Below are positions 3,539 through 64,000 of a DNA stretch of 64,000 nucleotides, piece after piece; the stretch's first letter is position 1; every line of letters begins with the position of its first letter. The notes below the pieces were generated by a model. That model saw only the letters and a list, made by a program, of their open reading frames with translations, made no database searches and had not been told where the DNA came from. The stretch covers positions 2,048,001 through 2,112,000 of the forward strand of contig CP170459.1 of the NCBI GenBank assembly GCA_047947115.1, given 5' to 3'. Source of the stretch: Verrucomicrobiota bacterium. Lineage in GTDB: Bacteria; Verrucomicrobiota; Verrucomicrobiia; Limisphaerales; AAA164-E04. The position numbers and the translations under genes were made by a program.

Positions 3539-3539
3539 G

Positions 3540-4225: not shown

Positions 4226-4261
4226 ATTGAAATACAGTTAAGTTTAAGGTTTTGTTGCCTG

Positions 4262-4546: not shown

Positions 4547-4580
4547 GTTTATTTAGACAGTCGGCGCATTCGCGGGAGAT

Positions 4581-4740
4581 ACGGGATGAACAGGATATGC
4601 AGGATGAGAAAATGGTTAGGGCAATTTGGGGCAGCAGGCTTCCCATTGGATGGTGTTGGGGATCGGATGTCACAAGGGGCGGGCCGAGAATGACCCGATC
4701 TACCTAAATAATCCATCCTATCAATCCTGTTCATCCTGTC
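4581..4740. repeat. Intergenic inverted repeat built from CAGGAT-type units (REP-like)
   Basis: ACGGGATGAACAGGATATGCAGGATG (4581-4606) versus the reverse complement of CATCCTATCAATCCTGTTCATCCTGT (4714-4739). Confidence 0.6.
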
Positions 4741-4816
4741 TAAAAAAACAAAACGCTCAATTCCTCAGGCCACAAGCGAGCTTGCAAACCACGGCAAACT
4801 GACTTTAGATGCTGTC

Positions 4817-6589: not shown

Positions 6590-6734
6590 TAAAGCTTGAT
6601 CCCATCCCCGAGCTGCCCCTTAATGAGGCCGCCAGGGCCCATGGATTGTGGACTTACGAACCCCGCCAGGGCAGGAATGCAGCAACGGTAGTTTGCTCTG
6701 CATATGCCGTGGTCGCCCTGGTATTTTCCTCCCT

Positions 6735-7063
6735 TTTTTGAGCGTAGCCGCCTTCGCAAGAAGGTGGTCAAGTGTGTCTATATATTCCCAAAAATCCTTT
6801 GAACCCCTTTGGAAATCCACGCTTTTGGAAGCGCGGCTACGTAGCCGCCTTTGCGAAAAGGTGGAGGAGCGCATTCGAATGGGTCGGTAGGGTCCTCTGG
6901 TGTTGGGGTGATTCTGCCACGCTTTTGGAAGCGCGGCTACGTAGCCGCCTTTGCAAAAAGGTGGAGGAGCGCATTCGAATGGGCCGGTAGGGTCCTCTGG
7001 TGTTGGGTGATTCTGCCACGCTTTTGGAAGCGCGGCTAGGTAGCCGCCTTTGCAAAAAGGTGG
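6735..7063. repeat. ~100-bp tandem REP-like array with a perfect palindromic core
   Basis: CCACGCTTTTGGAAGCGCGGCTA at 6817, 6917 and 7016; core GCGGCTACGTAGCCGC; partial copy near 6735-6767. Confidence 0.9.
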
Positions 7064-7122
7064 TTTCCGTGAATGTCCAGATTGTGCTTGGCCAGGAGTG
7101 GATTGTAGGAGATACAGGGTTG

Positions 7123-40062: not shown

Positions 40063-40722
40063 TCAATGGGAAAGCGAAGTTCTGTAAGTCAAAGTCCAAT
40101 AATACTTGTAGCATTGAACCGTTGCATCCGTTGAGATTCCTTCGACTGCTTTCAGGAGTTCGGATTCGGTGGGGAAGTTCTTCATGATTTCGTGTTTGCT
40201 TCCGTTTTCCAACCGGCGGGTTTGGTAGGTGTTGCCGATCGAATCAGTTCTGGATATGGGGGTGCTGCTGCCTTCTGCGAAGACGTTGTCCATGCAAACA
40301 ACGATGGAGCCCGGTTTCAATGCGCTGTGAAAACTGCTCAAGAACTTTTGGATGTCGGGCTTCGAAATGTGGGACCAAAGAAAGCCAGCCAAACCCGCAG
40401 TGAAAGGTTGAGGAGGGAGGGGCAGGTTGAAGGCATCCTGGCAGTCGAATTTTACATGTGCGCCCAGTTTTCTTGTTCGCGCCATTTCCAAGGTGGCTTC
40501 AGTTCGGTCCTTGGCCCAGATGCTTGTGGCTGTTTTTGCAACGTATTGGGTCCAATAGCCAGTGCCGCAAGCTACTTCACATACGCGTTCATTCCGGAAG
40601 GTTTCCTCGATGAATGTTCTCAGTATCTGCAGTTCCGATTGGCGTTCGGGTTTGTCATAAATCCGATCATACTCGCGTGCACGAGCCGCGTAATATTGAA
40701 TCATGGATGAAGCTGTGGTCAT
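40063..40722 (-). CDS. Class I SAM-dependent methyltransferase
   Basis: YYAARAREYD, EVACGTGYWT, FLWSHI. Confidence 0.9.
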   Translation of the reverse strand: MTTASSMIQYYAARAREYDRIYDKPERQSELQILRTFIEETFRNERVCEVACGTGYWTQYVAKTATSIWAKDRTEATLEMARTRKLGAHVKFDCQDAFNLPLPPQPFTAGLAGFLWSHISKPDIQKFLSSFHSALKPGSIVVCMDNVFAEGSSTPISRTDSIGNTYQTRRLENGSKHEIMKNFPTESELLKAVEGISTDATVQCYKYYWTLTYRTSLSH

Positions 40723-46704: not shown

Positions 46705-48116
46705 GGTTGGGTCGTTTTAAGTGATTGGGTGGAGTCGGGTAACAGTGAATGTGTGCCGAGGAGCTTTTCCAAGTTGGCTGTTGCAATGGCTCGATCTGCC
46801 AGGGCGCGTTGATATGACAACTGGAATTCCAGGAGCAAGCGTTGTGCATCGATGAGTTCCAGGAAATCTGATTGCCCGGCCTGATAGGATTGCTCCGCTA
46901 CTCGCAGAGCGTTTTCGGTCAGGGGAGTCAAAGAATTTTTATACAAACCAAGTTTTCGCTCCGCATCCCTGTAGTTGAACAGCGCCATGGCAAGATCCGT
47001 TTGCAATTCATTTTCACGCTGCTTCAAGCGGAGTTGTGCTGCGGAAGTGTTGGATTCGGCCTGGCGAACAGCGGCCTTGTTTTTGCGGTTCCAGATGGGA
47101 ATGTTAAAGGCACCGGTGATCATCACCGGATCTTTGCCGTTGTCGCTTATCCCTGCTGTTGCCGATGGGGCGGTTTGGATGTAATCCAGCCCCAACGTGA
47201 AATCCGGTCGATTGTTTTTGAGGGTCAGTTGGATGGATTTCCGGCTTTTTTCCACTTCGGCCTGCAAGGCCGCCAGGTCCGGGTGTTGCAACAGCATGGT
47301 ATCCATAGAGGTTTTGCTCGGTAGCTGTAAGGTCTGAGTGTTTCCAAGTTTTGGGACAGGAAGGAAGGTGTTCGGGGGGCGATTCATTTCCGTGTTGAGT
47401 CTTGTGGTCAGGGGAAGGATCATGTCCTGAAGGCTCAGCAGTCGATCTTCGAGCTTTCCAATCTCGACCTGCGCTTTCACGACTCCTGTGACGTCACTAC
47501 CGCTTCTGAAACTAGCCTGTGCAACGCGTTCGAGGTGTTTCATGAGTTCAATGTTTTCCTGGGTGATCCGGATGGATTCATGCAGATAAGCCAGCTCGTT
47601 CCATGTTGTTTTGACGGATTGAAACAATCTGCGCTTGGTTGATTCGTAGACCTGCCAGGCGGCTTCTGCATCGTGATCGGCCATCTGGCCTGCCAGGGTT
47701 CGTTTTCCAAACCATGGAAACATTTGGGAAAGCCCCACACGTTGTTGCTGTGGGCCGACTCTTGTCTCAACTTCACGGATGAAATACCCGTAGGAGAACT
47801 TGGGATCCGGCAGCGCCGTCACCTGAGGGCTTTTTTCAAGAGCAGCTTGCCACGCTTCAAAAGCGGCTTTCATCCCTGGGTGTCGCATTGCCGCCATGGA
47901 GAGCACATCTTGCAGGCTTGCGTCCGGACTGAGTTCGGGATGATTTAATTTCGTTGGTTGAACGGGTGTTAGGGCACCGCTTCCAATCGGGTGTGAGATT
48001 GCTTCTGTCCGCTCTGCATCATGCCTGGTCTTTCCGGAGGCGCATCCTGTCAGGGCTCCGATCAAACCACTTAATATCAATTTGTTTGCAATAGAAAAAT
48101 TAGCCGTTGTTTTCAT
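46701..48116 (-). CDS. TolC/CusC family outer-membrane lipoprotein
   Basis: LTGC lipobox, LPDP, SQMFPWFGK, FLELIDAQR. Confidence 0.92.
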   Translation of the reverse strand: MKTTANFSIANKLILSGLIGALTGCASGKTRHDAERTEAISHPIGSGALTPVQPTKLNHPELSPDASLQDVLSMAAMRHPGMKAAFEAWQAALEKSPQVTALPDPKFSYGYFIREVETRVGPQQQRVGLSQMFPWFGKRTLAGQMADHDAEAAWQVYESTKRRLFQSVKTTWNELAYLHESIRITQENIELMKHLERVAQASFRSGSDVTGVVKAQVEIGKLEDRLLSLQDMILPLTTRLNTEMNRPPNTFLPVPKLGNTQTLQLPSKTSMDTMLLQHPDLAALQAEVEKSRKSIQLTLKNNRPDFTLGLDYIQTAPSATAGISDNGKDPVMITGAFNIPIWNRKNKAAVRQAESNTSAAQLRLKQRENELQTDLAMALFNYRDAERKLGLYKNSLTPLTENALRVAEQSYQAGQSDFLELIDAQRLLLEFQLSYQRALADRAIATANLEKLLGTHSLLPDSTQSLKTTQP

Positions 48117-48580: not shown

Positions 48581-48972
48581 TGTCTCTGGGTAGTGTAGTC
48601 TAGGTGCCAAAAAATGCGAGAGGAATTTAATAGGTGGAGGGGCGGGGCGCAGGTCAAAAATTATAAATCCAAATCTGGAGGGGCAAACGCCGCTTTGCTC
48701 CCACTTCTATGCTCAGGACATATGCATGCCTTACGGTAGCGAAGGACATACTGCAAGCATTCGAACACCAGTGGCTTTCCGCGTTCCATCTCAATTGATC
48801 GGGAATGATTCAAGGAGAAGATTTGGGAACCGGGTGGCACCGGTCCCTCCTTTTCAAAATACTGAACGGCGCCCGATACCTCGATACCTCGGAGCACCAG
48901 AGTGCGCTTGCATCTTTCAGGGAACAATGTGAGTATCTCGCCAATCCATTTATTCAAATCATATCCACGATC

Positions 48973-50391
48973 ATGCAAATGTTTCTTCGTCGACTTTTGG
49001 TGTGCTCTGTTTTGAGCACGGTTCTTTTTGGTTTCAACGTTTTTGGAGCCGCCAAACCCAACTTCATCCTTATCTTTATTGACGACCAGGGGTATGGCGA
49101 TTTGAGCTGTTTTGGTTCAAAAATCATCAAAACACCCAACATCGACAGGCTGGCCACCGAAGGTCGTAAGTTTACGAGTTTTATGGTGGCATCGCCTGTG
49201 TGTACTCCATCTCGTGCTGCTTTGATGACTGCCTGTTACCCGAAGCGCGTTGGGATGCATCAGCATGTGTTGTTTCCTCAGTCCAAGAAAGGATTACATC
49301 CTGAAGAGCACACCATTGCAGATCATTTGAAATCTCAGGGGTATGCCACGGCATGTTTCGGTAAATGGCATCTCGGGCACCACCCGGAAGTGTTGCCGAC
49401 TTCGAACGGGTTCGATACTTACCTGGGCATTCCATACTCGAATGACATGAACCATCCCGACAACAAAGGAAAACCGCAAGGCGGTTGGCAGGGGATGGAT
49501 ATTTTGTGGAATGATCCTGAATCGACTCTAACCAAATGGAAGACTCCTTTGATTGAGGATGGGGAAATTGTCGAGTTGCCCGTTGATCAACGAACGGTGA
49601 CGCGGCGTTATACCCAGAAGGCAATTGATTTCGTAAAAGCTCACAAGGATGAGCCGTTTTTTGTTTATCTGCCCCATACGATGCCGCATATCCCGCTTTA
49701 TGTTCCCGACGATGTGCGTGATCCGGACCCTAAAAATGCTTACATCAACACGATCGAACATATTGACAGCGAAGTTGGGCGCTTGCTGGATGTGGTGGAT
49801 GATTTGAAACTGACCGAGAACACCTATGTTATTTACACCACGGACAACGGTCCCTGGTTGCAGTTCAAGCATCATGGTGGTTCCGCCGGACCGCTGCGTG
49901 CGGGCAAGGGAACGACTTTCGAAGGCGGACAGCGTGTGCCTTGTTTAGTGCGGGGACCGGGTATACCCGCTGGAACCTTGTGCGACGAATTGACAGGAAC
50001 GATTGATGTGCTTCCCACTATTGCCGCCCTTACTGGTAAGCCATTGCCATCCGATAGAAAAATTGATGGCATCGACGTTTCCGGACTTTGGAATGGAACC
50101 CTGAATCGCTCGCCGCGCACTGAATTCATTCACTACACATCGGTTGGCAATCTGGAAGGACTCAGGCAGGGAGATTGGAAAATTCTGGTCAAGAAACCGC
50201 GTAACCAAAACAATCAGCAAGGTGGCCCGAATCCGACTCAGATCATGTTGTTTAATCTAAGAGACGATGTAGGTGAACAAAACAATCTTGCCAGTCAATA
50301 TCCCGATCTCGTGAGGATACTCACCCAACGCATGGAAGCTTTGGATCAGGAAATCACCACGAATGCCCGCGCTCCTTGGGTCACTGAATAG
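48973..50391 (+). CDS. Arylsulfatase-family sulfatase
   Basis: KPNFILIFIDDQGYGD, CTPSRAALMT, GKWHLG, DNGP, EGGQRVP. Confidence 0.95.
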   Translation: MQMFLRRLLVCSVLSTVLFGFNVFGAAKPNFILIFIDDQGYGDLSCFGSKIIKTPNIDRLATEGRKFTSFMVASPVCTPSRAALMTACYPKRVGMHQHVLFPQSKKGLHPEEHTIADHLKSQGYATACFGKWHLGHHPEVLPTSNGFDTYLGIPYSNDMNHPDNKGKPQGGWQGMDILWNDPESTLTKWKTPLIEDGEIVELPVDQRTVTRRYTQKAIDFVKAHKDEPFFVYLPHTMPHIPLYVPDDVRDPDPKNAYINTIEHIDSEVGRLLDVVDDLKLTENTYVIYTTDNGPWLQFKHHGGSAGPLRAGKGTTFEGGQRVPCLVRGPGIPAGTLCDELTGTIDVLPTIAALTGKPLPSDRKIDGIDVSGLWNGTLNRSPRTEFIHYTSVGNLEGLRQGDWKILVKKPRNQNNQQGGPNPTQIMLFNLRDDVGEQNNLASQYPDLVRILTQRMEALDQEITTNARAPWVTE

Positions 50392-50600
50392 GCCCTCGGA
50401 CTTCATTTGCAGAAGCTGATTGTTGCCATTTCTATTTGCCAGCCTTTCAGTTGTCTTTTTTGGTGGGGAAGTGTCGTGATTATTCCATCGGTTGAAAGTT
50501 TGCAATGGCCTTGAACGATGGGGTGATGACGGAATTTCGATAAAATGGTGGATTGATCCATCCATAAATAGATTGACTTTTGGTAAGGTTTTGTAAATCA

Positions 50601-53600
50601 TTGGCCAACCAGTTATCAGTGACACGTTCGTCTTACAGCCTGGAGGCGTTGGAGCCTCGTGTGCTTCTTTCTGGGGATGGGCTTTCTGTTTTATCAGAGA
50701 GTCACGCGTCTTCTGGAGTCGAAGAAGATTTGTTCTGCGCTTCGGAGTCGTGTGAATTGATCCAGAATGAAACACAGGATGAAGTGACCGAATGGTTGAT
50801 TGACGGAGATCTTGATGCATTAGATTCTCTGTTCAACCAGGAGGGTACTTCGCAGGAGGACTGTATCTTCGCCGAAGAAAGTGACGCAGCGGGTGAGGCT
50901 GCAGTGAGCGGTCCACTTGAAGATGCTTCAGACGGTGAAACTGAGGAGCAGGGTGATGCTCCAACTTCCGATATTTCCAATTTTATTCCCGCTTCAGATA
51001 TCCTTTCCGAAACATCGCTTTTGGTGACGGATCAGCCGGGAGATTTCGATTTATTTTGCTATTGTTCACGTCTGGTTGAGACGTTGAATGTGGGCAATGC
51101 CCCCCCTGCTGGTGAAACCTGTTTGCCTGGCGAAAGCGCGAGGCACGATTTGCCATACCATGTTGCATCTCAAACGGTCGACCAGGTCTCTGGTTTGTTC
51201 GTCTCTTTAACGCCAGAGCAGGCAGAGTCTGTTCTGGACTTGTCTATGAGTCCGCAAGGTTATGTGGCTCAAGTCGTTGATGCTTATGGTAAGCTTGTGG
51301 CCGAGCCGACAGAACTGTCGGTCGATGCGACGGTTGTCATCACGGGCAGTGACGACCTCGACGATACTCTTACCATCCGATTGCCGGAAGTGCACGCGGA
51401 TGGATGGCTTGCCATTGCTTTTGAAGGCGGAGATGCAGGGTTTGATTCATTGGTTCTGGAAGGGCCGGACGGTGTGCTTGTTCAGTACGTTGCTGCAGGT
51501 CCTGATTCCGGTTCCATTCAAGGTGAAGGGTGGGAGATTCATTACACCGGACTTGAGCCCATTACCGACAACAGTGATGTGGCCGACCGGTTGTTCACCG
51601 CGACCGGCTCGGATGATATCATTCGCTTGAAGGACGCCGATGAACCTGGATTCATGACCATTGAAAGTGACAATGGTTCTTTTGAGAGTATCAGCTTTCC
51701 TAATCCAACTTCCTCCCTGACCATCGATGCCGGCGGAGGAAATGACCAGATCATTATTGAAAGTTTGGATCCGGCCTTTGTCGCGGGAGCAAGTGGTTCG
51801 GCTGATCCGGAATTGCATCTTCAAGGTGGCGCTGGCACGGACACCGTTTTTGTAAGTTATCCGGCGGACCTGATTCTCACCGATGCTTCCTTGGATGGTG
51901 GAAGTGATTTCAATTTGATTTTTGATGATGTTCCCGATCAAGTCGTGGTTTCGGGCGGAGCGATTGACGCTTCGGCTTTTTCCGGCGTGGCTGTGGTGGT
52001 ACCGGGTGTGCCGGATTGGCAGGACGAGGGCCCCGGGCTGATTCATTCGGATCTCACAAAAGATGCTCCTTTCCCTGAATCAGGTGCAGTTGAAGCGATC
52101 GCAGTACATCCGGGAAACGATCAAATCCTTTTTGCCGCGAGTGTAAACGGTGGCGTTTGGCGGACTGAGAATGGAGGGCAGACCTGGACGGCGATGACCG
52201 ATGAACTGCCATCACTGTCCTTTACGTCCATTGCCATACATTCCCATGATGCGGATGGTAACTTGGTGGATGCTTCCACGCCTGTTGGCAAATTGATTGT
52301 TTTTGCTGGAACAGGTCAACGAAGCGCCAATCACGAAGGTGGATTGGCGATCGGTTTGCTGCGTTCTCAGGATGGAGGAGATACCTGGGAATTGGTGGGT
52401 GTGCCGGATATGACCGGTTTGCCGCTCAGCGCCATTGTGGCAAAACGCATTTCCGGGCAGGACATTGTGCTTGTTGCAGCTGAAGGAAAAACGGTCAGAG
52501 AATCCAGCAAAGTGGAAATGCTTGGTTCACCGGATTTGACCTTCAGCGACCAGGGTGCATCATCGGATACCATCACGCGATCCGCTGGCAGCTGGATAGA
52601 TGATGGTTTTGCATCCGGTCACGAGATTGAGGTAGATGGTACCACCCGAAATGATGCGACATACAAGATTGCTTCCGTCACTGCGACCGTAATGACCTTG
52701 GAGGCCGACTCAATTCTGGTGGATGAAGCCAGTGTCAGCGGAGTAAAGGTCATCACTTCCTTGAAGGTCAAGTTGTTGAAAGAGGGAGGTGTTTTTCGTA
52801 GTGTGGATGGAGGGGATACATTTACCCAGATTCAGCCCATTGACCCTGCCGCGCAATTTTTCCCTCTGGACGAGCGCCATTTTCCGACCGGATCTGTGAC
52901 AGATCTGGCCATTGATCCTGGGGCGGAAGAACGCATCTATGCCGGTGTTCGAGGCGGCGGGGTCTATCGTTCCGATGACGCCGGAGCTACTTGGACCGCC
53001 GTGAATACGGGGTTAACCCTGGCAACCGATGACTGGGACAATGACGGAAACGGCTATGTCGATGATGCTGATGAAACGGCAGTAGGGGTGCAACGTATCT
53101 TATTAGCGGTCCAGGCAGATGATGCATCGGCGACAAACGAGGTCTATGCTGCATTGGTTGGTGGGAATGATCATTTCATAGGGATATTCAAATCCGACGA
53201 TCAGGGGGCTAATTGGTCTTTGCTCGGAGAAGCTCCCGGACGTCCCGAATTTGAATTGAGTTTTCCTGTCACATCGAATGCCGGGCTCATCGACTTCCTC
53301 GATAACAATCCCGCTCAGGATACGGTTGTGCGATCGACTGGCAGTTGGATTCGGGATGGCTTCCAAGCGGGGGATTACATTGAAATAACCGGATCTGCTG
53401 CAAGCGATGGGGTTCATTTGGTGGCTTCCGTCAGTCATGACACATTGACGATGGATGCGGGTGTTGCCCTGGATACCGAAGTTTATTTGCGCAGTATCAA
53501 AGGGGCTCCGGAATTGACCTTTGCCGATGCGAATCCCGATACTATCACGCGTAGCGTGGGGAGCTGGGTTGAGGACGGGATTGTGAAGGGGCATGAGATC

Positions 53601-56600
53601 AAGATCTCCGATACAACGGGCAATAATGGCACCTATACCGTGACCGGAGTCACTCCGCTGGTGTTGACGCTATCTGGTTCGGATTCACTCACAGCAGAGA
53701 CCATTCAGACCGCAGTAGAAATCAAAGCAAGTGCCACCGAATACGATGGTCCGGGAACGCTTCAACCTCAGATTCACCGCGGCAGCCAGGGCGAATTGCA
53801 TTTCTCAGTCACGGCGGATGCCGATGGCAATATCTATCTGGGTGGGGACCGGCCTGCCCATATTTTCCGTTGGGATCAAACAACCAGCCAATGGGATCAC
53901 ATCACCAAGCAAAACGCCACGGGCACACGTTCGCATGCTGACTCAAGAGTCTTGATTCTGGATGGAGCAGGGCAGCTTTTGGATGGGGATGATGGAGGCG
54001 TGTATCGTTTACTTAACCCTGGTGACAATGCCACGGTGACCATGACGGGATCTCCGCGCGTCACTTTCGTGGATGCCAATCCTGACCAGGTTCAACGCTC
54101 TGCCGGAAGCTGGATCACGGACGGGTTTGTCGCAGGTCAACGCATTGGTGTGACAGGTAGCTTTTCTTTGTATGGGAATGACGGGGTTTACACGATTGCC
54201 TCAGTTACCGCTTCCACTCTTACACTGGTTGCATCTGATCAGCTTCAATCCGAAGGCCCCAGATCTGGCGTCACAGTTGTCTCTTATCCCGCTTTGGCCG
54301 GCAATCCGAACCTGACTTTTGCGGATGCCTCGCCGGATACCATCACCCGTTCGGCCGGGAGTTGGGTTTCCGATGGATTTGCTGTCGGACATCACATTGA
54401 AGTATCAGGTTCATCGAGCAACGACGGCATTTATACGATTTCCGAATTGACCGCGACTCTGTTGAAAGTAACGGCAGCCGATAGTCTTGCTGCCGAAGGG
54501 CCCGTCAATGGAATCCATGTCTGGCAGAATCGTGAGTGGAAGAGTCTGAATGCATCCCTTGGTGCCACGGAGATTCTTTCCATGTCTTACGACCCGGTCA
54601 GCAATGTCTTCTTCGCCGGTACTCAGGATAATGGTGTCATTGAACAGCCTTTTCCGGCTGACGGTGTTGACAATGACGGGGACGGTATCGTAGATGAACC
54701 GGATGAACGCTTCAGGTGGTCTGTTGTGCTGGATGGACGCGGACTTCCGCCGGGCGATGGCAACATCACCGCCGTGGCGTTGTTGGATTTGGATGACGAT
54801 GGGCAGATTGACGAAGTGCGTCGCTATACCATGTCCAATAATCTCGTCAGTTTTACCCAGCGCCTTTTTGACGAAAATGGAGCACTGATCCCGGGAACGA
54901 ATCAACTTGTCGGACTTGCTTCTCCTGTGTCGCAAACCGTGAACTTCACTGTCAACATCGGCAGCGACCAACTTACCATCAATGATCATGGCTTGGTGAC
55001 CGGAGACGGACCCTTCAAAGTGGACGTTTCCGGAGGAGGTAGTCTTCCGGCCGAACTGTCAACAGATGCGCTATATTGGGCCATTCGGGTTTCTGACAAC
55101 GCCATTCAGTTGGCCGCCAATCAGCAGGATGCTTTGGATGGAAGCCAGATCAATTTGACCACGGATGGCTCGGGGACACGTCAGTTGACGAAACCTTTCC
55201 TTAGCTTTGGCAATGCCGCCATTGACGATCCCACCGATCAGATAACCATTCCCAATCATGGTCTGGCAACGGGAGCCGGGCCGTTCCGTCTGGTGACCAG
55301 TCGGGGTAGTGATTTTGGAAGTGGCCTTTATCCCTACATAGATTACTACGTCATTCGGGTGGATAACGATACCATTCAACTGGCACGTTCCAAGGCTTTG
55401 GCCAATGCGGGAACCGATTATTCCATCAAGGACAATGGTTCCGGAGCTTTCCAGCTTGTCTCTCGATTGAGTGGTTTGAACGGCAACGATGCTGCTAAGT
55501 ACACCAGTGGTTTTCGGGAGTTGGCATACGCTGTCAATCAAGTGGATGACACCCGAATGTTGCTTGGTTTGAATTCGGTTTATGCCAGCGTGAATATCGG
55601 TAGTGACGCGACTCCTTATTACGATGGTTTGGGAACGGTGCAGAGATTGTTCACTCATCCAAGCAGCGGTCAGTTCACTTCACTGGTTTACGGAGGTTCC
55701 AAGAATGGTGTTGAGAATCCCGATGTGGTTTATGCCTCCAGCTGGTCTCGCATTTATATTCAGGTTGCCAATGCCATGACGGGTAACCCCAATCTGGTAT
55801 TTGCGGACAATGGGGCAAGCGAAGATACCATTACCAGATCGTCCGGAGATTGGGAGGCGGACGGGTTTGCTCCCGGTCAGGTGATTACCATCAGCGGTTC
55901 GTCTAACAACGATCACTCTTACACTGTTCAAGCCGTGACTCCTACCGTGTTAACGGTGACTTCCGGAGACAGTCTTACTGCCGAAGGGCCCGTGAATCAG
56001 GTGGCTGTAAGTCGTTTCAGCAGGGAAACCACCCCCGGTTCGGAAACAATCAACGGGTTGGTGCTAGATCCTGATGATTACGACATCGCTTATGCCATTT
56101 CGGATGCAAACGTGTATCAGCGCACTGGACCTGGGAAATGGGAAATCATTTCAACCGAACTATCCAGCTTGTCATTGAAGAGTATTGAATTCGCCCAGGT
56201 AGGAGGGACGGACATCCTGCTGGTTGGCGGTGTGAATGGATTGTTCCGGGCAATCGATCCGCAGCCAGGAGTGACCTGGACGGAAGTGGGGCGCGGCTTG
56301 CCCAATACCTTGCTTCGTGACACAGATTATATCAGTCGCGATCCGGCTGATGCCCCGAATCCACACAACTTGTCCCGCGAAGATATTCTGTTGGTGGCGA
56401 CTCAAGGTCGCGGTGCATGGTTGACATTGTCGCCGGATGTTTATCTGGACGAAATGACTGAAATTCACATTGTGGGCGATGGCGGCAATGATGAGATCAA
56501 GATTGAACGTCGTGCAAGCAATGCCTCATTGCTGGACATCTACGTCAATAGCAATTCACCTGTTTATACACTACCTGCTAGTGCCGTTTCCAAAATCACC

Positions 56601-59600
56601 GTGGAAGGTAATGATGGAAATGATACGCTCACCTTGGACAGCACGCATGGACCGCTTTCTTTCCCGGGGGATGCTTCCGATCCTTCTAATCCCGAAGGGA
56701 TCTTTTTCAACGGAGGTGGCGGTACCAATCAATTGGTTCTGGAAGGTGGAAAAAGTCACAGCCTCACCCAGGCGAGCGATGCAGGTGTCACAACTCTGAC
56801 CATTCAGGATATTCGGGCAAATCAGCAAGCGATGTTTGCGTTTGAAAATGCCACGCTCGACAACAATCTCGTGCCGGCATCCGATCTGGAAATCTTTTAT
56901 CATGTGATGACTGAGATCTTTTTCGGTTATTCGCATTGGATGGGGTCAAATGATTCGTTGAGTGGTGATGGGATGATGGATGAATTGGCCTTGATTGGTT
57001 ACTCGCTGCCACGCGTCTTGAACGGATCTCAAACAAACGATCTTGATCCGGTCGGTGATCCGGTCGAGGAGGCTACTGAAATGGTTCAGAGCGGATCAGT
57101 TCGGTCAACTTCGGGACTGGAACGCCTGATTGAATCGGGTGAAAACGGATTTAGCCTCTCTGAAATTGGTGACACAATCCTGACCCTTGATGCTTTACGG
57201 GCCCGTCTGGATGATCTGGATGACGTGGCTGGGAATGTTGTGTTGGATGAAATCACCGATCGTGATGGTGACAGTTTGGCTGACGCCATTTTGACCATCC
57301 AAATACAGCGCACCTTGAATGGACAGGCAGCTTTGGAATTGCAGACTGAATACGGGGTAGGCGAGATTGATATCTCAGGGGACATGCATGTATCGGTCGA
57401 TGTGGTGCTGGACTTGGTGGTTGGTATTGAGACGACCGATGGGGTTTTCATTGAGACGCTGGGTGGAGCATCCGGCCTTAGTGTAAGTGGACTTGAACTT
57501 GAAGGCTCTTTGGAGGGAACCGGTCGATTGGGCTTCCTGGAGGTCTATCTTGAGGAATCCCGGCTTGTGGTCGATCCCGCATTGACCTTCGGAATCACGC
57601 TGTTGGATCCTTCTGGCGGGGATGAGATTCGTTTTGATGAATTGATGGCGTTGTTATCCGATCCCTCATCCTTGAGCGATCTGGCCGAGTTTGCCATTAC
57701 GGGATCTGCTTCTGATGACCTGGAGTTCAGTGCTGTCGTTCATGCTGCGGCCATTCTTCCCGGATTGGATGATCCATTCGATCTGGGGGATGCGGAGATG
57801 ACAGCGACATGGAGTGAGATTACCGATATTGATTCTGTGGCAATCAGCTTCAGCGTGGGGGCTGGTGAGGACTTGATTGGGTTTTTGGAAGTGACCGCGC
57901 AACGAGTGGTTGAGGCGTTGGAAACCGTTCAGAATACCCTTGAACAATTCAGTGTCGATATCCCGGAAATCGATCAAACCCTCGACGATCTCCTGCGGTT
58001 TGTGGATGGATTTGAAGACACTATTCTTTCTCCACTCCGTGAACCTGTGCATGGATCCGTATCGACAGCGACGATTCAGGATATGATTCGTTCCTGGAAC
58101 CGCGGATTGAACGAAGAACTGGAAACGGTAGGGCTTCACTTCGATGCCGACGAACTTGAGTTGACCTATGATTTCGAATACAGCCATTTCTTCGGTCGCG
58201 ACGGTGATGCCCTGGACCTTTCCTTTGATCTGGGCGGGGCGGGATCGTCCCTTGGTATGGATGCCGAAGTGTCTGTCGAGGGGACGGTGGGATTGCAAAC
58301 TACTTTGGGTCTCGACCTGGGGGCTTTGATCGGTGGTGGAGATTTTGATGACATTTTCTTTTTACAGGACACCTTGTTTGAAGGGGAATTGAATCTGAGC
58401 TTCACTGAACTGGATACGGACCTGACGGCGGGTTCGCAAACATTCAATCTTGAAGATGGTGAGCTGGTGTTGGGAGTGAGCCTGACCATTGATCCATCCG
58501 GTGCGGACGATAATGCTGACAATAAGCTGAGCCTGACTGAATTGACTTCCGCTTCCTTGGAAGATCTGGTTGATCTGGACGCTACAGGTACACTGGATGC
58601 AACGCTTCCTTTCAATGCCGATCTGAGCCTTGATTTGTTGAACGGAGCCGGGCTGGCGACGGAAGGGGATTATGTCATTACCTTGCATACGGATGATTTG
58701 TTCGGATCGGATCCCATGGACGTGACGGTCAGTCTGGATGGCAGTGTGACGGTGTTGGGACAGACGCTTGAGGGGCTCTTTACTTTCCAATCCACCACCA
58801 TGGAAGGCGAATCGGTTACTATTCTTTCGGGTGATCCGTTTACGCTGACTTTGTTTGAAGGCGCAGGGGGTGGTACCGCCCTGGTCTCTGCAATGGGTAG
58901 CGGTCACTTCGTGGTAACCGACGACGGAGTGGCAGGCGAAGCCGAGGCTGCCCTTGTGGTTGGAGTGGCCGGTTTTGCCAACCTGACAGGTGATTTTGAG
59001 GTTAGGGTCAATACCACCGAATCAGACTTCGATGCTACCTTTACGGTGGGGGGCGATTCGGTGACACTGGATCTGCCTGAAGGCCCTTACCTGCGCGTTG
59101 CGGGCGAGGATGTGAGTGTCGACTTGAGCATCGGTTCCTTCACCCAAACCGTCAGCGGCGATTTTGCTTTCGAACAAACGGGCGATGGCGATAACCGGCA
59201 AGTGGTCCTCGGGTTGAACAACGTTTCCATGACCATGGAAGCCGGCGCTTTGACCCTGGAAGCAAATGATGGTTCAGGCGCGTTCCTGCTTCAGTCAGCA
59301 GGTGTGGCAGGTGAGGCGACGATCGGAGAAGTCATTTTGAACGGCGTTCCTGGTGTTACTTTGAATGTGGTGGATCTGGCCATTCGCGTGAACAACACCG
59401 GTATGGACATCAACGACGGTGAAGCCGAACCCGGCCCGCTTACCATCGAGGTCGGCGGGGAAACCCTTTCGTTTGAATTCAGCGGTGCTTACGAGCAGGA
59501 TTATCTTTCCGTTTCAGGTGGCGCCGAAATGGTGTTGGCGGATTTCATCACTCTGTACGGAAACTTCACCATTGAGCGATCCGAACTGGATACCAATGCC

Positions 59601-62600
59601 GACACGATTGTGGAGGACGTAATCAAGGTGGGGGTTGAATCCTTGAACTTCACTTTGAGCGCCGGTTCATTTGAAGTGTTGTCCTTCTCTGATGGAACGG
59701 GCGCTTTTGTCTTCACCGATGAGGGCGTGGCAGGAACGGCTGACATGCAGTTCGAGCTGGGAATCATCGGTCTCAGTGGCGACATTGACATGGAATTGAA
59801 CACACTGAGCCGCGCGATTGAAGCCTCGGTGCCGGTGGCCTCTGGCGCGGTTGCATTTAACTTCACTGATACCGAGTTCCTTCGGGTATGTGTCACCAAC
59901 GCATTTCTCAATCTTGGCTCCACTTCGATTCCGATCCCGGGTGATTTGTTGGTCGATGTTGACACGGGCAGCGGTTCGGTCGATGTCGTGGACAAGACCA
60001 GTGGCACGGTGCTGGTTTCGGTTGCTTCGGATGGTACGATTTCCACAGGGCTTTCCTTTGACGACTTTGCGATTTCCGGTCCGTTTGAATTCATCAGTTT
60101 GCTCCGGCAATTGCTGATCTGGTTCAATGAAATGAGCGAATCGGAAGCGTTCAATGTCGAGATTCCATTCACCGATAACACGCTTGGGGAGGCGCTGGAC
60201 TGGACGCAGTTGTTCCTGGATGAAATTTACTCCAACATGATCAGCGTCGAGTTGCAGTCCGGTGAGGATATTGACGGCATGATCGCGGATGAAGGGGATG
60301 GCATTGTGGATCTGGTTGATGTGAATTTCATGTTGCAGGTCGATGACGAAACACCGGTCGAAGTCACCGTCAACGGTTCGTTCAGTTCGATTGAAAACGC
60401 CAGTGATCCTTTCGATGCATCAACCTTGGTTGGTCTTTTCAACAACGCTTTCCTCGCTGCTGGTGCGGGGCTTTCCTCACAAGTGGTCGCCCGCAAACAT
60501 GAAGAAACCGAGCCGGGTGTCGATCGATTTGTGATTGCCTTGCTGCCGGAAGCCATTGCCAAGTTGTCCTCCTTGAAGCTGGTGGAACTGGACGAGGATA
60601 TGGAAGGGTTGGGCTTTGGTCCGAGTGACGGTAATTACGGGGATGAGGACGGTAGCGAAGCCAATCCATATACAACCGAGCAGACCGCCATCGAGACACA
60701 TCGCTACACCACCGAACAATTCTTTGTCGCGTTGGGCGATCTGCTGGGGATACCCGTTACTTACAATCCGGCCCAGTTGGTTTACACCTATACCGTCGAT
60801 AAGGAAGCGACCTATGAGACGACGGTTCCGTTCAACTTCAGCGGGGACTTGGGCGACCTCGGCGGAGTGGCCGTGGAAGGGTTGGTCCGGATTGAAGCGA
60901 CTGTTGGGTTTGAGTTTACTTTGGGCTTTGACCTGGGCGCCGACGAAGTTCCAAGGATTCTCACATCGACCTTTGTGCCGACTCCAGCGAACGGCCGGAT
61001 CAGTGAAGACGCCAACTTTGACATCTTCTTCAATGATGATCTTGCAGCCGTCAGTTTCTCTGGCGCCAATGCCCTGACCGCCGCTTCCACTGCTGATAAT
61101 ACCAGTATCAATGATTTGGCGGATGATCTGAATGACCTGTTTGCCACGGTAGATTACAACGGGTCTCCGGTCAGTGACTGGTTGGTGGCGCAGAAGGCCG
61201 GCAACGGTCTGGCCATTTCGGTGCGTCAGGAACATCTGGGAGTGATCAATCGACTGAGCACCCGTTCAAATATCGATGATACGTTCGCCACCGAGATGGG
61301 ATTCGGAATCGAAGTGCTCGATCTGGACGGCAATGAAGTGACCGAGAATGATCGCTACTTTGTTTCCACATCGCAATCGGGAATGAAGGGGTTGTTTCTG
61401 GACGATGTTTCCCTTTCGGCCTCTCTGGCGGCCTACACTGAGACCGACACAGGAACTTATCCGGATGCCAATCCCGATGGGTTGACGGGAAGTCTGCAAT
61501 TTGGTTTTGTCGAATTGTCCACGAGTGAGGGTGCCTTCGGAACCTTGGAATATGATGGAACCACACCGACCGAAATCGGGATTGATCTGGGATTGGAAAA
61601 CAGTGGCAGCGGTGAAAGCCGGTTTTATCTCGCGGATTTGTTCCAGTCCCTGACGTCCACATCATTTGGTGACATGGTCAACGGACCGGATTTCTCGGGC
61701 AGCTTCCTGGCACGATTGCAGGGATTAAGCGTGAATGGATTCGATATCGGAGACCTGGCTGGAAGTGACCCTGAAATCTCCGTTTGGATCCCTGATATCA
61801 ATGATCTCGAATACAACGAAGACCCCTATGATGGCACCAACACCGGTGTGTTTGTGACATACCCAAATTTGGGACACTTGCAGAACTTCCAAAACTTCAG
61901 TTTCGCTCAATTGATCAATGCGCTTCGGGTATTGGTCGACAACCTGAGCGAATTGAGTGCGTTTGGATTCCTGGACAAGAAGATTCCGGTGATTGATGCC
62001 AGCGTGAATGATCTGCTGGATTATGCTGCGAAGTTCGCCGAGTTGGTGGAAGAAGCAGCGAATCAACCTGCCGGGTCATTGCAGGCAGCGATCACCGAAC
62101 TGGAATCCCAGATCGAATCCCTGTTCAATCTTGATCCCAGCATCCTGACCGTTTCCATTGATACCAATGGAATCACTCCAGACCAACTGGTATTGAGCGG
62201 GGGAGATGGCTCGAATCCGGCTGGCACCACTCTGGATCCAGAAGGCGACAACAATGGACTTGTCATTGAGAGCGCATCCAACGGCACGGGGGATAACGGC
62301 ATCTCGATACGTCTAGTTGGTGATTCAAGCGTGAGTGGAAATGATGCCAATGTAGAGTGGGACAGTGTGCAGCGAGTCCTCACACTAGGTATCCGGGGCG
62401 GAGAGACGACCGCTGCAACGTTGCGTGATGCCATCAATGCGCTGTCGGGAACGCCCTTTTTTGCCTCTTTGCCGGGCGGTGAGGATGGTAGCGGGACATT
62501 GAGGACAACCGCATTGAAATTCGGGTTCGACTTTACCGCTGCCTATGGCAACCTCCTACCGCTGCAATTGGATCTCAATGCGTTGGTGAATCAATTGGCA

Positions 62601-64000
62601 GGCGACAGCGGTGCTGCAGCTTTCCTCGATGCAGCCACCACGCTGATCCAGGTCGAAGGATCCGGGTCATTGGAAGTCAGCGCGAGTGCTTCGTTGATTT
62701 TGGATTTTGGAATTGATGTGACCAATCCCACATCACCCGAGGTGTTCTTCTATGACACCACCGGAATTTCGCTTCTGGCTAAGGTGCTTGGACGCGATAT
62801 TTCCATTGAGACCTCGCTTGGTTCCGTGATTGGGATCTATATTGAAGACGGGGAAGTGACCATTGATCAGGATGGTGATCCGGATACTGATGCGGGCGAC
62901 GACGATCGAGGTGTTGAGTTCGGCCTGACGCTGAACGACACGAATGGTGATTCCAGGATTTATTTCTCCGAAAACTGGTTCACCACCGACATCATTGACA
63001 TTTCCCTGAATGGCGGACTGAGCGTATCCCTGCCAATCTTTGCTCCGGTGGAAGGATTGCCGCTGGGCGGGACAGGGGATCAGAACGAGGACGGACATCC
63101 GGACAACGAGTTGTATATTGAAATCTCCGATTTTGCCGGACTGTTTTCCGGGGAGGATGTGGTCACCATCATTGCCCCGGATCTGAACAACCTGATTCAA
63201 AATGTTGATTTCTGTGCTGTTTTAGAAAATGCGGGTTTGCTGATCAATGGACTGGATCAACTGCTCGGTTCGATCGAAGAAGGGCTGCAGGATCTGGTGG
63301 CATCCAATTCACTTCCAATGCTTGGGGATGGTTTCAGTGATGCTGCGAACTTTATCTCGAGTTTCCGAAATGGTTTGCTCGCGTCCATACAAGCCGAGTT
63401 GGATGCGGCAGGCGGCAGCGCAGTGACCGTTGTTGAAAACGCGCTCAAGCAAGCTTTCTGGGAAACGCTGGGACCGGAAGGGTTGGATTTGTTGGTAGAC
63501 CCTGATTCGGGTGAAGCGCTGGATCCATCACTGGGTTATCATCAGCTCGCCGTGATGCTGGACTGTGAAGCAGGGTTGGTGGTTGATCTGCGATTGCGCA
63601 AGACCGTCGCCTTGGTGGACACCAGCGAGAATCCGATTGATTTTGACATTGGCGTGCCCGGATTCGGGTTGGAAGTGAATGGAAATGTCAGTGTCGCCAT
63701 TGGATTTGATCTCAAGTTCGGCTTCGGGTTGAACAAGGAGGACGGTTTCTATTTCGATTCCTCGGCAGGTGCGGATGATCCCGAGCTGCGAGTCTTCTTC
63801 GAGGCCAGCATTCCCGGTTTGTCGGCGACGGGGAGTTTGGCATTCCTGCAACTGGACGTCGGAGATGATCCGGATGATCCGAGTTCGTTTGTCGGTCAGT
63901 TTGTTGTGGATCTGAAAGATCCCAATCACGACGGAAAACTGACATTTGCCGAGATGAGTTCGAGCGGGGTGCAGTTCTCGGACATATTTGATCCGGGACT
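50601..64000 (+). CDS. Giant LEPR-XLL-domain extracellular protein (>4,460 aa, runs off window; absent from ORF track)
   Basis: Manual translation: LANQLSVTRSSYSLEALEPRVLLSGDG...; the same frame is open at the end (SSGVQFSDIFDPG). The track lists no stop-terminated ORF in this frame. Start could be 50580, 50601 or 50619. Confidence 0.92.
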   Translation, partial: MANQLSVTRSSYSLEALEPRVLLSGDGLSVLSESHASSGVEEDLFCASESCELIQNETQDEVTEWLIDGDLDALDSLFNQEGTSQEDCIFAEESDAAGEAAVSGPLEDASDGETEEQGDAPTSDISNFIPASDILSETSLLVTDQPGDFDLFCYCSRLVETLNVGNAPPAGETCLPGESARHDLPYHVASQTVDQVSGLFVSLTPEQAESVLDLSMSPQGYVAQVVDAYGKLVAEPTELSVDATVVITGSDDLDDTLTIRLPEVHADGWLAIAFEGGDAGFDSLVLEGPDGVLVQYVAAGPDSGSIQGEGWEIHYTGLEPITDNSDVADRLFTATGSDDIIRLKDADEPGFMTIESDNGSFESISFPNPTSSLTIDAGGGNDQIIIESLDPAFVAGASGSADPELHLQGGAGTDTVFVSYPADLILTDASLDGGSDFNLIFDDVPDQVVVSGGAIDASAFSGVAVVVPGVPDWQDEGPGLIHSDLTKDAPFPESGAVEAIAVHPGNDQILFAASVNGGVWRTENGGQTWTAMTDELPSLSFTSIAIHSHDADGNLVDASTPVGKLIVFAGTGQRSANHEGGLAIGLLRSQDGGDTWELVGVPDMTGLPLSAIVAKRISGQDIVLVAAEGKTVRESSKVEMLGSPDLTFSDQGASSDTITRSAGSWIDDGFASGHEIEVDGTTRNDATYKIASVTATVMTLEADSILVDEASVSGVKVITSLKVKLLKEGGVFRSVDGGDTFTQIQPIDPAAQFFPLDERHFPTGSVTDLAIDPGAEERIYAGVRGGGVYRSDDAGATWTAVNTGLTLATDDWDNDGNGYVDDADETAVGVQRILLAVQADDASATNEVYAALVGGNDHFIGIFKSDDQGANWSLLGEAPGRPEFELSFPVTSNAGLIDFLDNNPAQDTVVRSTGSWIRDGFQAGDYIEITGSAASDGVHLVASVSHDTLTMDAGVALDTEVYLRSIKGAPELTFADANPDTITRSVGSWVEDGIVKGHEIKISDTTGNNGTYTVTGVTPLVLTLSGSDSLTAETIQTAVEIKASATEYDGPGTLQPQIHRGSQGELHFSVTADADGNIYLGGDRPAHIFRWDQTTSQWDHITKQNATGTRSHADSRVLILDGAGQLLDGDDGGVYRLLNPGDNATVTMTGSPRVTFVDANPDQVQRSAGSWITDGFVAGQRIGVTGSFSLYGNDGVYTIASVTASTLTLVASDQLQSEGPRSGVTVVSYPALAGNPNLTFADASPDTITRSAGSWVSDGFAVGHHIEVSGSSSNDGIYTISELTATLLKVTAADSLAAEGPVNGIHVWQNREWKSLNASLGATEILSMSYDPVSNVFFAGTQDNGVIEQPFPADGVDNDGDGIVDEPDERFRWSVVLDGRGLPPGDGNITAVALLDLDDDGQIDEVRRYTMSNNLVSFTQRLFDENGALIPGTNQLVGLASPVSQTVNFTVNIGSDQLTINDHGLVTGDGPFKVDVSGGGSLPAELSTDALYWAIRVSDNAIQLAANQQDALDGSQINLTTDGSGTRQLTKPFLSFGNAAIDDPTDQITIPNHGLATGAGPFRLVTSRGSDFGSGLYPYIDYYVIRVDNDTIQLARSKALANAGTDYSIKDNGSGAFQLVSRLSGLNGNDAAKYTSGFRELAYAVNQVDDTRMLLGLNSVYASVNIGSDATPYYDGLGTVQRLFTHPSSGQFTSLVYGGSKNGVENPDVVYASSWSRIYIQVANAMTGNPNLVFADNGASEDTITRSSGDWEADGFAPGQVITISGSSNNDHSYTVQAVTPTVLTVTSGDSLTAEGPVNQVAVSRFSRETTPGSETINGLVLDPDDYDIAYAISDANVYQRTGPGKWEIISTELSSLSLKSIEFAQVGGTDILLVGGVNGLFRAIDPQPGVTWTEVGRGLPNTLLRDTDYISRDPADAPNPHNLSREDILLVATQGRGAWLTLSPDVYLDEMTEIHIVGDGGNDEIKIERRASNASLLDIYVNSNSPVYTLPASAVSKITVEGNDGNDTLTLDSTHGPLSFPGDASDPSNPEGIFFNGGGGTNQLVLEGGKSHSLTQASDAGVTTLTIQDIRANQQAMFAFENATLDNNLVPASDLEIFYHVMTEIFFGYSHWMGSNDSLSGDGMMDELALIGYSLPRVLNGSQTNDLDPVGDPVEEATEMVQSGSVRSTSGLERLIESGENGFSLSEIGDTILTLDALRARLDDLDDVAGNVVLDEITDRDGDSLADAILTIQIQRTLNGQAALELQTEYGVGEIDISGDMHVSVDVVLDLVVGIETTDGVFIETLGGASGLSVSGLELEGSLEGTGRLGFLEVYLEESRLVVDPALTFGITLLDPSGGDEIRFDELMALLSDPSSLSDLAEFAITGSASDDLEFSAVVHAAAILPGLDDPFDLGDAEMTATWSEITDIDSVAISFSVGAGEDLIGFLEVTAQRVVEALETVQNTLEQFSVDIPEIDQTLDDLLRFVDGFEDTILSPLREPVHGSVSTATIQDMIRSWNRGLNEELETVGLHFDADELELTYDFEYSHFFGRDGDALDLSFDLGGAGSSLGMDAEVSVEGTVGLQTTLGLDLGALIGGGDFDDIFFLQDTLFEGELNLSFTELDTDLTAGSQTFNLEDGELVLGVSLTIDPSGADDNADNKLSLTELTSASLEDLVDLDATGTLDATLPFNADLSLDLLNGAGLATEGDYVITLHTDDLFGSDPMDVTVSLDGSVTVLGQTLEGLFTFQSTTMEGESVTILSGDPFTLTLFEGAGGGTALVSAMGSGHFVVTDDGVAGEAEAALVVGVAGFANLTGDFEVRVNTTESDFDATFTVGGDSVTLDLPEGPYLRVAGEDVSVDLSIGSFTQTVSGDFAFEQTGDGDNRQVVLGLNNVSMTMEAGALTLEANDGSGAFLLQSAGVAGEATIGEVILNGVPGVTLNVVDLAIRVNNTGMDINDGEAEPGPLTIEVGGETLSFEFSGAYEQDYLSVSGGAEMVLADFITLYGNFTIERSELDTNADTIVEDVIKVGVESLNFTLSAGSFEVLSFSDGTGAFVFTDEGVAGTADMQFELGIIGLSGDIDMELNTLSRAIEASVPVASGAVAFNFTDTEFLRVCVTNAFLNLGSTSIPIPGDLLVDVDTGSGSVDVVDKTSGTVLVSVASDGTISTGLSFDDFAISGPFEFISLLRQLLIWFNEMSESEAFNVEIPFTDNTLGEALDWTQLFLDEIYSNMISVELQSGEDIDGMIADEGDGIVDLVDVNFMLQVDDETPVEVTVNGSFSSIENASDPFDASTLVGLFNNAFLAAGAGLSSQVVARKHEETEPGVDRFVIALLPEAIAKLSSLKLVELDEDMEGLGFGPSDGNYGDEDGSEANPYTTEQTAIETHRYTTEQFFVALGDLLGIPVTYNPAQLVYTYTVDKEATYETTVPFNFSGDLGDLGGVAVEGLVRIEATVGFEFTLGFDLGADEVPRILTSTFVPTPANGRISEDANFDIFFNDDLAAVSFSGANALTAASTADNTSINDLADDLNDLFATVDYNGSPVSDWLVAQKAGNGLAISVRQEHLGVINRLSTRSNIDDTFATEMGFGIEVLDLDGNEVTENDRYFVSTSQSGMKGLFLDDVSLSASLAAYTETDTGTYPDANPDGLTGSLQFGFVELSTSEGAFGTLEYDGTTPTEIGIDLGLENSGSGESRFYLADLFQSLTSTSFGDMVNGPDFSGSFLARLQGLSVNGFDIGDLAGSDPEISVWIPDINDLEYNEDPYDGTNTGVFVTYPNLGHLQNFQNFSFAQLINALRVLVDNLSELSAFGFLDKKIPVIDASVNDLLDYAAKFAELVEEAANQPAGSLQAAITELESQIESLFNLDPSILTVSIDTNGITPDQLVLSGGDGSNPAGTTLDPEGDNNGLVIESASNGTGDNGISIRLVGDSSVSGNDANVEWDSVQRVLTLGIRGGETTAATLRDAINALSGTPFFASLPGGEDGSGTLRTTALKFGFDFTAAYGNLLPLQLDLNALVNQLAGDSGAAAFLDAATTLIQVEGSGSLEVSASASLILDFGIDVTNPTSPEVFFYDTTGISLLAKVLGRDISIETSLGSVIGIYIEDGEVTIDQDGDPDTDAGDDDRGVEFGLTLNDTNGDSRIYFSENWFTTDIIDISLNGGLSVSLPIFAPVEGLPLGGTGDQNEDGHPDNELYIEISDFAGLFSGEDVVTIIAPDLNNLIQNVDFCAVLENAGLLINGLDQLLGSIEEGLQDLVASNSLPMLGDGFSDAANFISSFRNGLLASIQAELDAAGGSAVTVVENALKQAFWETLGPEGLDLLVDPDSGEALDPSLGYHQLAVMLDCEAGLVVDLRLRKTVALVDTSENPIDFDIGVPGFGLEVNGNVSVAIGFDLKFGFGLNKEDGFYFDSSAGADDPELRVFFEASIPGLSATGSLAFLQLDVGDDPDDPSSFVGQFVVDLKDPNHDGKLTFAEMSSSGVQFSDIFDPG

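Follow-up and report, generated by a model that had tools for sequence, protein, structure and literature searches.

The giant gene and its locus

The window analysed here is a stretch of 64,000 nucleotides from a Verrucomicrobiota bacterium (assembly GCA_047947115.1, contig CP170459.1, positions 2,048,001 to 2,112,000), and its 3' part is occupied by a giant gene encoding an acidic protein with an N-terminal LEPR-XLL motif. The genome, labelled G000, is a single N-free contig, 95.8% complete, and its closest relative is labelled G001. On the + strand, a frame opens at TTG 50580 and stays open to the window end over 4,473 amino acids (aa), overlapped only by short antisense open reading frames (ORFs), which bears out an earlier, sequence-only reading of one open frame from about 50601 hidden under antisense noise. 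The full length, which that reading had proposed to read from the adjacent sequence, is reached at a stop at genome positions 2121959-2121961, equivalent to window positions 73,959-73,961. Counted from TTG 50580, the giant ORF comprises 7,793 aa (a 23.4-kb gene; 819 kDa, pI 4.05) and is the longest open frame of the genome. Its composition is acidic and poor in K/R as described earlier, with 12-21% D+E and 1-6% K+R per 500 aa, and the parts that had been listed, from LEPRVLL to the loop DPNHDGKLTFAE, all lie where they had been placed. The Pfam EF-hand match of this EF-hand-like loop stays below the cut-off (Table 1).

The gene is, by comparison with its orthologues, real and conserved. The orthologue P0001 has 7,786 aa and 96% identity over the searched region, and P0002 has 7,755 aa and 72% identity end to end. 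Codon differences relative to G001 fall mostly in third positions (1,581 synonymous, 393 non-synonymous) and include zero stops, a pattern that places the gene under purifying selection. Because independent full-length orthologues exist and the codon differences are mostly synonymous and free of stops, the frame is neither a chance opening nor an assembly join. An artefact or mis-assembly is ruled out on the same grounds and by the continuation of the frame in a single-contig genome; neither the in-frame stop nor the assembly join against which the sequence-only reading had cautioned was seen. In G001, two contigs (G001:C53 and G001:C99; loci L106 and L107) contain the upstream sulfatase gene and a 5' stretch of the orthologue (2,878 aa), at 94.6-95.1% identity to the giant gene, which may reflect either a strain mixture or a duplication.

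The start codon is uncertain among 50580, 50601 and 50619: TTG 50580 opens the frame, TTG 50601 is the start of the database protein P0001, and P0002 begins, in the alignment, at GTG 50619. The sigma-70-like site that would favour the last was found once against 0.7 expected by chance and is alone no evidence. Parts of the gene occur in 20 metatranscriptome runs from aquatic, estuary and marsh samples, and contigs from four runs span the giant gene and its downstream partner gene; since these are contigs only, and cover neighbouring genes as well, transcription is not demonstrated by them.

Table 1. Features of the window, in window positions; residues (res) are counted from TTG 50580.
Feature	Position	Strand	Remarks
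Giant ORF, in-window part	50580..64000	+	res 1-4473
Weak sigma-70-like site TTGACT-17-AATCAT	50573..50601	+	9/12 match; would favour start 50619
LEPR-XLL leader	50637..50690	+	NF012209, 27.5 bits against a cut-off of 17; res 20-36
Second conserved N-terminal motif RLVETLNVGNAPP	51069..51107	+	family form QLxETLxAxN[GA]PP; follows an acidic variable linker
First Gly/Asp RTX-like Ca-binding turns	51726..51848	+	res 383-423
BNR/Asp-box double beta-propeller, GH74/Vps10-like	52017..56420	+	res 480-1947; assigned at sequence level
Six ~80-aa inserted repeats (R1)	52518-52760, 53274-53495, 53502-53732, 54042-54287, 54291-54527, 55773-56018	+	weak PHROG matches
Two ~90-aa inserted repeats (R2)	54933..55469	+	homologous to phage tail-fibre/baseplate/tail-tube segments
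Second Gly/Asp RTX-like block	56475..56729	+	res 1966-2050
Helix and beta-meander modules (predicted)	56757..58679	+	res ~2060-2700; weakly repeated in later core; no Pfam match
Three ~130-aa beta-meander repeats	58719..59915	+	res 2714-3112; modelled as an unbroken antiparallel sheet with one hydrophobic face
Two inserted domains	60234..61310	+	res 3219-3379 and 3463-3577
Start of most conserved core	63147..64000	+	res 4190-4960; contains the EF-hand-like loop
EF-hand-like loop DPNHDGKLTFAE	63918-63935	+	res 4447; Pfam E 0.048, below cut-off
Sulfatase gene	48805-50391	+	directly upstream of giant gene, same strand; syntenic in G001
Cus-type heavy-metal efflux set	40719-48116	-	TolC-like OEP, CusB-like adaptor with HMBD/DUF3347, 1,336-aa RND pump, then methyltransferase
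RCC1-repeat protein, 446 aa	38488-39828	+	
CotH kinase/lamin-tail protein, 950 aa	27234-30086	+	

A conserved family with differing heads

A search with residues 3700-4473 returned 75 proteins, most of 5,900-6,500 aa, and those with named hosts belong to Verrucomicrobiota, including Limisphaera ngatamarikiensis. Most of the family align to residues ~2600-7793 of the giant protein, the part shared with Verrucomicrobiota giants of ~6,000-6,400 aa, and differ in their heads: some have a propeller, some a domain of the PGxSPG type, some have both and others neither of the two. A search of GTDB genomes recovered 62 loci, mostly in Verrucomicrobiota; distant members come from Planctomycetota and from two Gammaproteobacteria records. 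As judged from these alignments and from the neighbouring gene described below, the giant protein is a member of a widespread Verrucomicrobiota family of giants, defined by a conserved scaffold of ~6,100 aa and a partner gene. In a tree of the core (quick method, midpoint root, 56 of 60 aligned rows, the four rows below 600 aa being dropped), the giant protein nests within a group of 30 rows with a support of 99 as its sole propeller carrier, and this position suggests that heads have been exchanged within the conserved core family.

The partner is the next gene after the giant gene (window-equivalent 74,065-78,876) and encodes 1,603 aa with LamG, IgGFc_binding and HYR domains; partner genes across the family combine IgGFc_binding and HYR with LamG or GEVED domains. 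Among the 61 relatives, the IgGFc_binding domain is present in all nine carriers of the giant core (G000 included), adjacent to it in eight, and also in two non-carriers. Passages of one published study place this domain in gliding bacteria (PMC11796319).

The propeller head contains five Asp-box motifs. In relatives, the propeller is uninterrupted and spans ~770-850 aa, and in the giant protein it is lengthened by eight inserted repeats of ~80-90 aa, which were found only in the giant protein, P0001 and P0002 among the 75 proteins and the 62 locus ORFs. The two R2 copies match 24 phage records, at 28-36% identity for the 12 matches listed. The six R1 copies match head/major-tail proteins weakly in PHROG; since no Pfam family passed the cut-off and tblastn returned no phage record, the phage link of R1 depends on those weak PHROG matches. 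An assignment of the repeats to E1_FCCH domains was not confirmed by Pfam.

Behind the head lies a core of ~2,900 aa without Pfam annotation (zero Pfam matches over residues 2001-4473), which is predicted to form long beta-sheets with one hydrophobic face. The AlphaFold2 model of residues 2690-3560, from 32 sequences, shows a continuous antiparallel meander with strands mostly of 10-17 residues, followed by an alpha/beta region (mean predicted local distance difference test, pLDDT, 79), and that of residues 4190-4960, from 60 sequences, shows helical hairpins alternating with long meanders (pLDDT 74). The ~130-aa meander unit has three copies here; a repeat search of 76 proteins listed 64, and 42 of these have six copies. 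The first inserted domain (residues ~3220-3373) aligns to the flagellar cap protein FliD and to phage sheath/baseplate domains, with borderline Z scores of 7.0-7.5. Residues 4190-4960 are 30-78% identical across Verrucomicrobiota, Planctomycetota and the two Gammaproteobacteria records, and 98% identical in the closest relative; EF-hand families match 13-15 of 60 homologues at E<=0.1. Searches of the Protein Data Bank (PDB) with core profiles gave weak EF-hand matches or none, the ESM Atlas gave unnamed clusters only, and Foldseek on the core models gave only beta-barrel noise with a TM score of about 0.1. Beyond the window follow the rest of the core, RTX blocks (PF00353 over the cut-off in 16 stretches), six Calx-beta domains, three SdrD_B domains and a family-conserved C-terminus. 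The sequence-only reading had recognised neither the repeats inserted in the propeller nor the conserved family with its partner gene, nor the candidate export link described below.

Several further observations concern the surroundings. The Cus-type efflux set is unrelated to the giant gene as far as tested. Downstream of the partner gene (L002:6096-6935, genome ~2127.1-2127.9 kb), the frame of an extracytoplasmic function (ECF) sigma factor runs into a gene that is separate in G001, which suggests a deletion-fusion in G000. The genome holds other very long frames, namely a run of 3,170, 2,594 and 2,704 aa at genome positions 1893367-1918787 and a frame of 6,779 aa without a LEPR motif at 3167330-3187669, and many long frames of G000 terminate in an F[YF]R-type C-terminal motif.

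Leader and candidate export machinery

The LEPRVLL sequence occupies residues 24-30, of which L24, E25, R27 and L30 are invariant, the family consensus of the leader is FxLEALEPRxLLSAD, and no hydrophobic signal peptide is evident in the giant protein. A LEPR-like motif is present in 45 of the 62 GTDB locus ORFs of the core family when their upstream context is included. Of the second motif, the N[GA]PP portion occurs within the first 700 aa of 52 of 76 proteins, and several of those without it are gene calls truncated at the N-terminus. It recurs in three other LEPR giants that adjoin export modules. The RTX-like turns that follow include DAGGGNDQI at residue 383 and QGGAGTDTV at residue 415.

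The candidate exporter in G000 is a five-gene run at genome 403.6-412.2 kb that encodes TolC, HlyD, GAF-HlyD, M50-HlyD and SecA_DEAD and is free of ABC genes. Its SecA_DEAD has no match for the wing/scaffold regions, and the HExxH site of M50 and the SecA motifs are intact. In the slot after SecA_DEAD (genome 398218-402965; L087:2215-6875), two insertion sequence (IS) transposases flank a 578-aa RTX remnant that is 91% identical to the C-terminus of a 9,012-aa LEPR giant occupying this slot in the genome G007; in G001, the remnant is absent from the stretch fetched. By this comparison, IS elements have destroyed the cargo gene that once adjoined the module. The giant gene is the one LEPR-XLL gene of G000.

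Across genomes, LEPR-XLL proteins tend to occur together with the module. Across the 61 relatives, 14 carry both LEPR-XLL and an M50-HlyD orthologue, two LEPR only, three M50 only and 42 neither (nominal Fisher p 3e-9, a value overstated by kinship). Among 150 other genomes of the phylum, close M50-HlyD orthologues (E<1e-150) and LEPR (E<0.001) mark one and the same set of 10 genomes, from seven families. Homologues of M50-HlyD were also found in all four non-Verrucomicrobiota carriers checked. The LEPR gene directly follows SecA_DEAD in four of the 10 module loci fetched; a fifth has a LEPR match in a 98-aa frame at that place, and one Gammaproteobacteria locus has adaptors followed by a LEPR gene, with no SecA in the stretch.

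The N-terminus of M50-HlyD resembles PqqD and other recognition elements (RREs) of ribosomally synthesized and post-translationally modified peptides (RiPPs), as indicated by PqqD clusters at 0.95 in the Atlas and by a PqqD match in the PDB at E 0.029. The RRE fold binds RiPP leaders. When this domain was co-folded with the leader, the score was 0.40 against 0.01 for the best control, with a partner pLDDT of 48-50 and at least 73% of contacts shared between runs, which lends weak support to binding. Of 157 solved complexes, 116 come up to the mark applied, as do 2 of 215 mismatches; with scores of <=0.60, only 18 of the 157 complexes but both mismatches do. Such a pass is more often wrong than right unless the pairing is likely beforehand.

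Three side observations touch on this machinery. A distant class of M50-HlyD paralogues (23-32% identity) occurs without LEPR-XLL proteins in 26 of the 150 phylum genomes and is possibly a sister system with another leader. In a Gammaproteobacteria contig (G081:C1, 550-620 kb; L099, L100, L081), two adaptor/M50 sets flank several giant genes, including a distant core homologue, and no SecA_DEAD lies in the stretches fetched. Elsewhere in Verrucomicrobiota, LEPR-XLL frames reach 28,355 aa (G052:C30), 27,799 aa (G050:C30), 20,466 aa (G119:C142), 19,216 aa (G144:C1) and 19,033 aa (G128:C5).

Proposed function, alternatives and known systems

On balance, the giant protein is probably an adhesin or scaffold of the cell surface that folds with Ca2+ and bears an exchangeable propeller head, and its LEPR-XLL leader probably directs its export in trans through the SecA_DEAD module. 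The adhesin or scaffold part of this proposal had been put forward by the sequence-only reading of a giant secreted acidic LEPR-XLL mosaic and gains support from the NF012209 match, the RTX/Calx-beta/SdrD_B tail and the apparent exchange of the head within a conserved family; the glycan binding and filament formation that it also raised are conjectural. In the proposed mechanism, the M50-HlyD fusion would bind the FxLEALEPRxLLS leader through its PqqD/RRE-like domain at the N-terminus, and the wingless SecA_DEAD ATPase would push the unfolded chain through M50/HlyD/TolC, with possible cleavage of the leader at the intact HExxH site. Outside the cell, Ca2+ would fold the RTX/Calx-beta part, and the core would form an elongated beta-sheet body whose hydrophobic face may be covered by helices, by a second copy or by lipid. 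Together with the partner protein, the propeller and its inserted repeats would then bind a glycan or a surface, with no hydrolysis of the GH74 type.

A number of points weigh against this proposal. RTX tails normally imply C-terminal export by a type I secretion system (T1SS). The evidence for the export route is all genomic, and related genomes are not independent. The module sits 1.7 Mb from the giant gene and could be a relic of the lost cargo; no LEPR gene lies next to the module in three of the 10 loci fetched, and the carrier G026 (82% complete) shows no M50-HlyD match even at 1e-15. The exact agreement of 10 with 10 genomes depends on thresholds chosen after the score gaps had been seen; at the thresholds as submitted (1e-40 and 0.01), the 150 genomes divide into 10 with both, three with LEPR only (weak matches in tiny frames), 26 with M50 only and 111 with neither. 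The fold matches of the core are borderline. Finally, a related motif in T. immobilis is found on enzymes such as proteases as well (PMC8567305) and so is not specific to adhesins.

A bolder version is more tentative: LEPR-XLL would be a RiPP-style leader for a hitherto undescribed secretion system, RRE-M50-HlyD/SecA_DEAD/TolC, with unlinked cargo served in trans, and the giant protein would stand for a family of surface rods in which the conserved beta-sheet core is a hydrophobic conduit and the swappable heads recruit phage tail modules.

It is unlikely that the protein is instead an RTX adhesin that leaves the cell by a conventional, though divergent, T1SS of the ABC type on the strength of a C-terminal signal, with the LEPR leader serving as a retention or processing element. 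The RTX blocks do reach the C-terminus, the final ~15 residues show conservation across the family, and a divergent ABC-HlyD-TolC operon exists in G000 at genome 4156933-4161574, which also counts against export by the SecA_DEAD module. The AxN[GA]PP motif, we presume, loosely resembles LapA-type N-terminal retention sites and may be counted on the same side. However, the adaptor of this operon occurs in eight of the 61 relatives and in only three of the nine giant-family carriers (one weakly), against eight of nine for the M50-HlyD module with its SecA. In G000, neither TIGR01843 nor TIGR03375 matched over the cut-off (TIGR01842 and TIGR01846 were not searched), and TIGR01843 passed it in none of the 61 order genomes, including eight carriers of the family. 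The T1SS neighbours that the sequence-only reading had proposed to look for are absent: the flanks contain the sulfatase gene, the Cus-type efflux set and the partner gene, and no linked T1SS. The LapG-type protease PF06035 likewise gave 0 matches in G000, with a positive Caulobacter control, and a LapG/LapD-type release is rejected on this ground.

The core might also act as a bridge-like conduit for lipids or hydrophobic solutes, with an open groove like that of the Lpt jellyrolls, leading from the bacterium to a surface or another cell that it touches; this model-based idea is compatible with export by the SecA_DEAD module and appears improbable. Its basis is the continuous meander of residues 2690-3560, whose nearest folds are LptC (Z 8.3, root-mean-square deviation (rmsd) 3.2, 128 residues aligned) and the N-terminal jellyroll of LptD (Z 8.8, rmsd 4.6, 165 aligned), and the one-sidedness of the strands across the alignments, where large hydrophobics make up 58% of one face against 18% of the other (24 strands) and 72% against 20% (18 strands). 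A Chlorobium LEPRxLL giant, in the portion of a preprint that describes it (bioRxiv 10.64898/2026.03.19.712371), is modelled with a hydrophobic cleft and reportedly transferred to a partner cell. Yet a Z score near 8 is borderline, within the range that the fold-search tool states for common arrangements, and MORN repeats and porins score almost equally; a packed sandwich produces one-sided strands too, and the Chlorobium giant is likened by description and not by sequence homology. For the model of residues 4190-4960, the VIA fold search gave no clear match, the best having a Z of 9.3 with an rmsd of 31. No AsmA/TamB/VPS13 or TULIP fold could be made out in the matches listed, which does not imply their exclusion.

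Very unlikely is a surface-anchored polysaccharide-degrading enzyme with the double propeller as an uncharacterised glycoside hydrolase on a long stalk: a profile from nine propeller regions does match GH74 xyloglucanases (E 3e-8 to 3e-14, best 2.5e-14), the polar residues invariant across the nine aligned propellers (HxDxR, DGG, GxQDxG) could form an active site and a sulfatase gene lies just upstream, but the GH74 motif TDIGG, whose Asp we take to be catalytic, aligns to SVNGG with Asp replaced by Val, the second catalytic Asp has no reliable alignment, and most family members lack a propeller, so that hydrolysis would not be the core function of the family.

LEPR-XLL giants are among the largest proteins of bacteria and have had no settled route of export, and the SecA_DEAD locus described in 2015 has had no substrate assigned to it. 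G000 offers a sharp test case: its one module is intact, the cargo beside it is destroyed, and its single LEPR-XLL gene lies elsewhere. Family members in named Limisphaera genomes make experiments on export conceivable. No paper was found that ties the LEPR-XLL motif to the SecA_DEAD module, in a search outside which most subscription papers lay, and the accessible parts of PMC3482391, PMC11573180, PMC10952558 and bioRxiv 10.1101/2023.11.21.568195 contain nothing specific on the giant family.

Among known systems, the secondary SecA_DEAD locus of Kamneva, Poudel and Ward (2015, PMC4452313), as far as its description was available, shares with G000 the wingless SecA_DEAD, M50-HlyD, GAF-HlyD, HlyD and TolC, and differs in that the candidate cargo here lies 1.7 Mb from the module; no substrate is named in those parts and supplements that could be searched. 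The secondary SecA_DEAD data of that study include Chlorobium chlorochromatii, and SapC is cluster 4 of the locus. In the Chlorobium preprint cited above, the LEPRxLL giants adjoin sapC and tolC and are said to be without known export signals; one recently acquired secA is described as well. The giants Cag_663 and Cag_665 resemble the protein described here in their LEPRxLL N-terminus, a predicted extended beta-sheet with a continuous hydrophobic cleft and a proposed Ca2+-dependent extracellular folding; they differ, in a comparison by description, in their size of 20,000-37,000 aa, their long parallel beta-helices and the C-terminus-first, T1SS-like export proposed for them. The same text cites LapA and a Marinomonas adhesin.

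The propeller head shares Asp-box repeats and profile similarity with GH74 xyloglucanases and Vps10-like propellers, and is distinguished from the xyloglucanases by the replaced first catalytic residue, the inserted repeats and its place as a module within a giant. Giant RTX adhesins such as LapA, MpIBP and SiiE are exported by T1SS. They have in common with the giant protein C-terminal RTX nonapeptides, Calx-beta and Ig-like domains and an acidic composition; unlike them, it has no long tandem Ig array but a beta-sheet core, no linked or cut-off-passing T1SS and no LapG in its genome, and it begins with a LEPR leader.

The closest comparison is with the LEPR-XLL giants themselves (NF012209), which are likewise very large and acidic, with an N-terminal motif over the cut-off, Calx-beta domains and no evident hydrophobic signal peptide. 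A passage of PMC10868602 mentions one of ~8,000 aa with RTX repeats in Vibrio without an export mechanism. In T. immobilis, 52 proteins carry the related planctomycete motif RRLxxExLExRxLLA (Pfam PF07595; PMC8567305), and proteomics detected 20 of them. Giant LEPR-XLL genes have been known as an annotation class. The protein described here differs in belonging to a core family with a second conserved motif and a partner gene, and in a propeller head whose eight inserted repeats are shared, among the proteins searched, only with two close orthologues; it defines a conserved scaffold with partner, of which the unannotated portion is in part modelled as beta-sheet.

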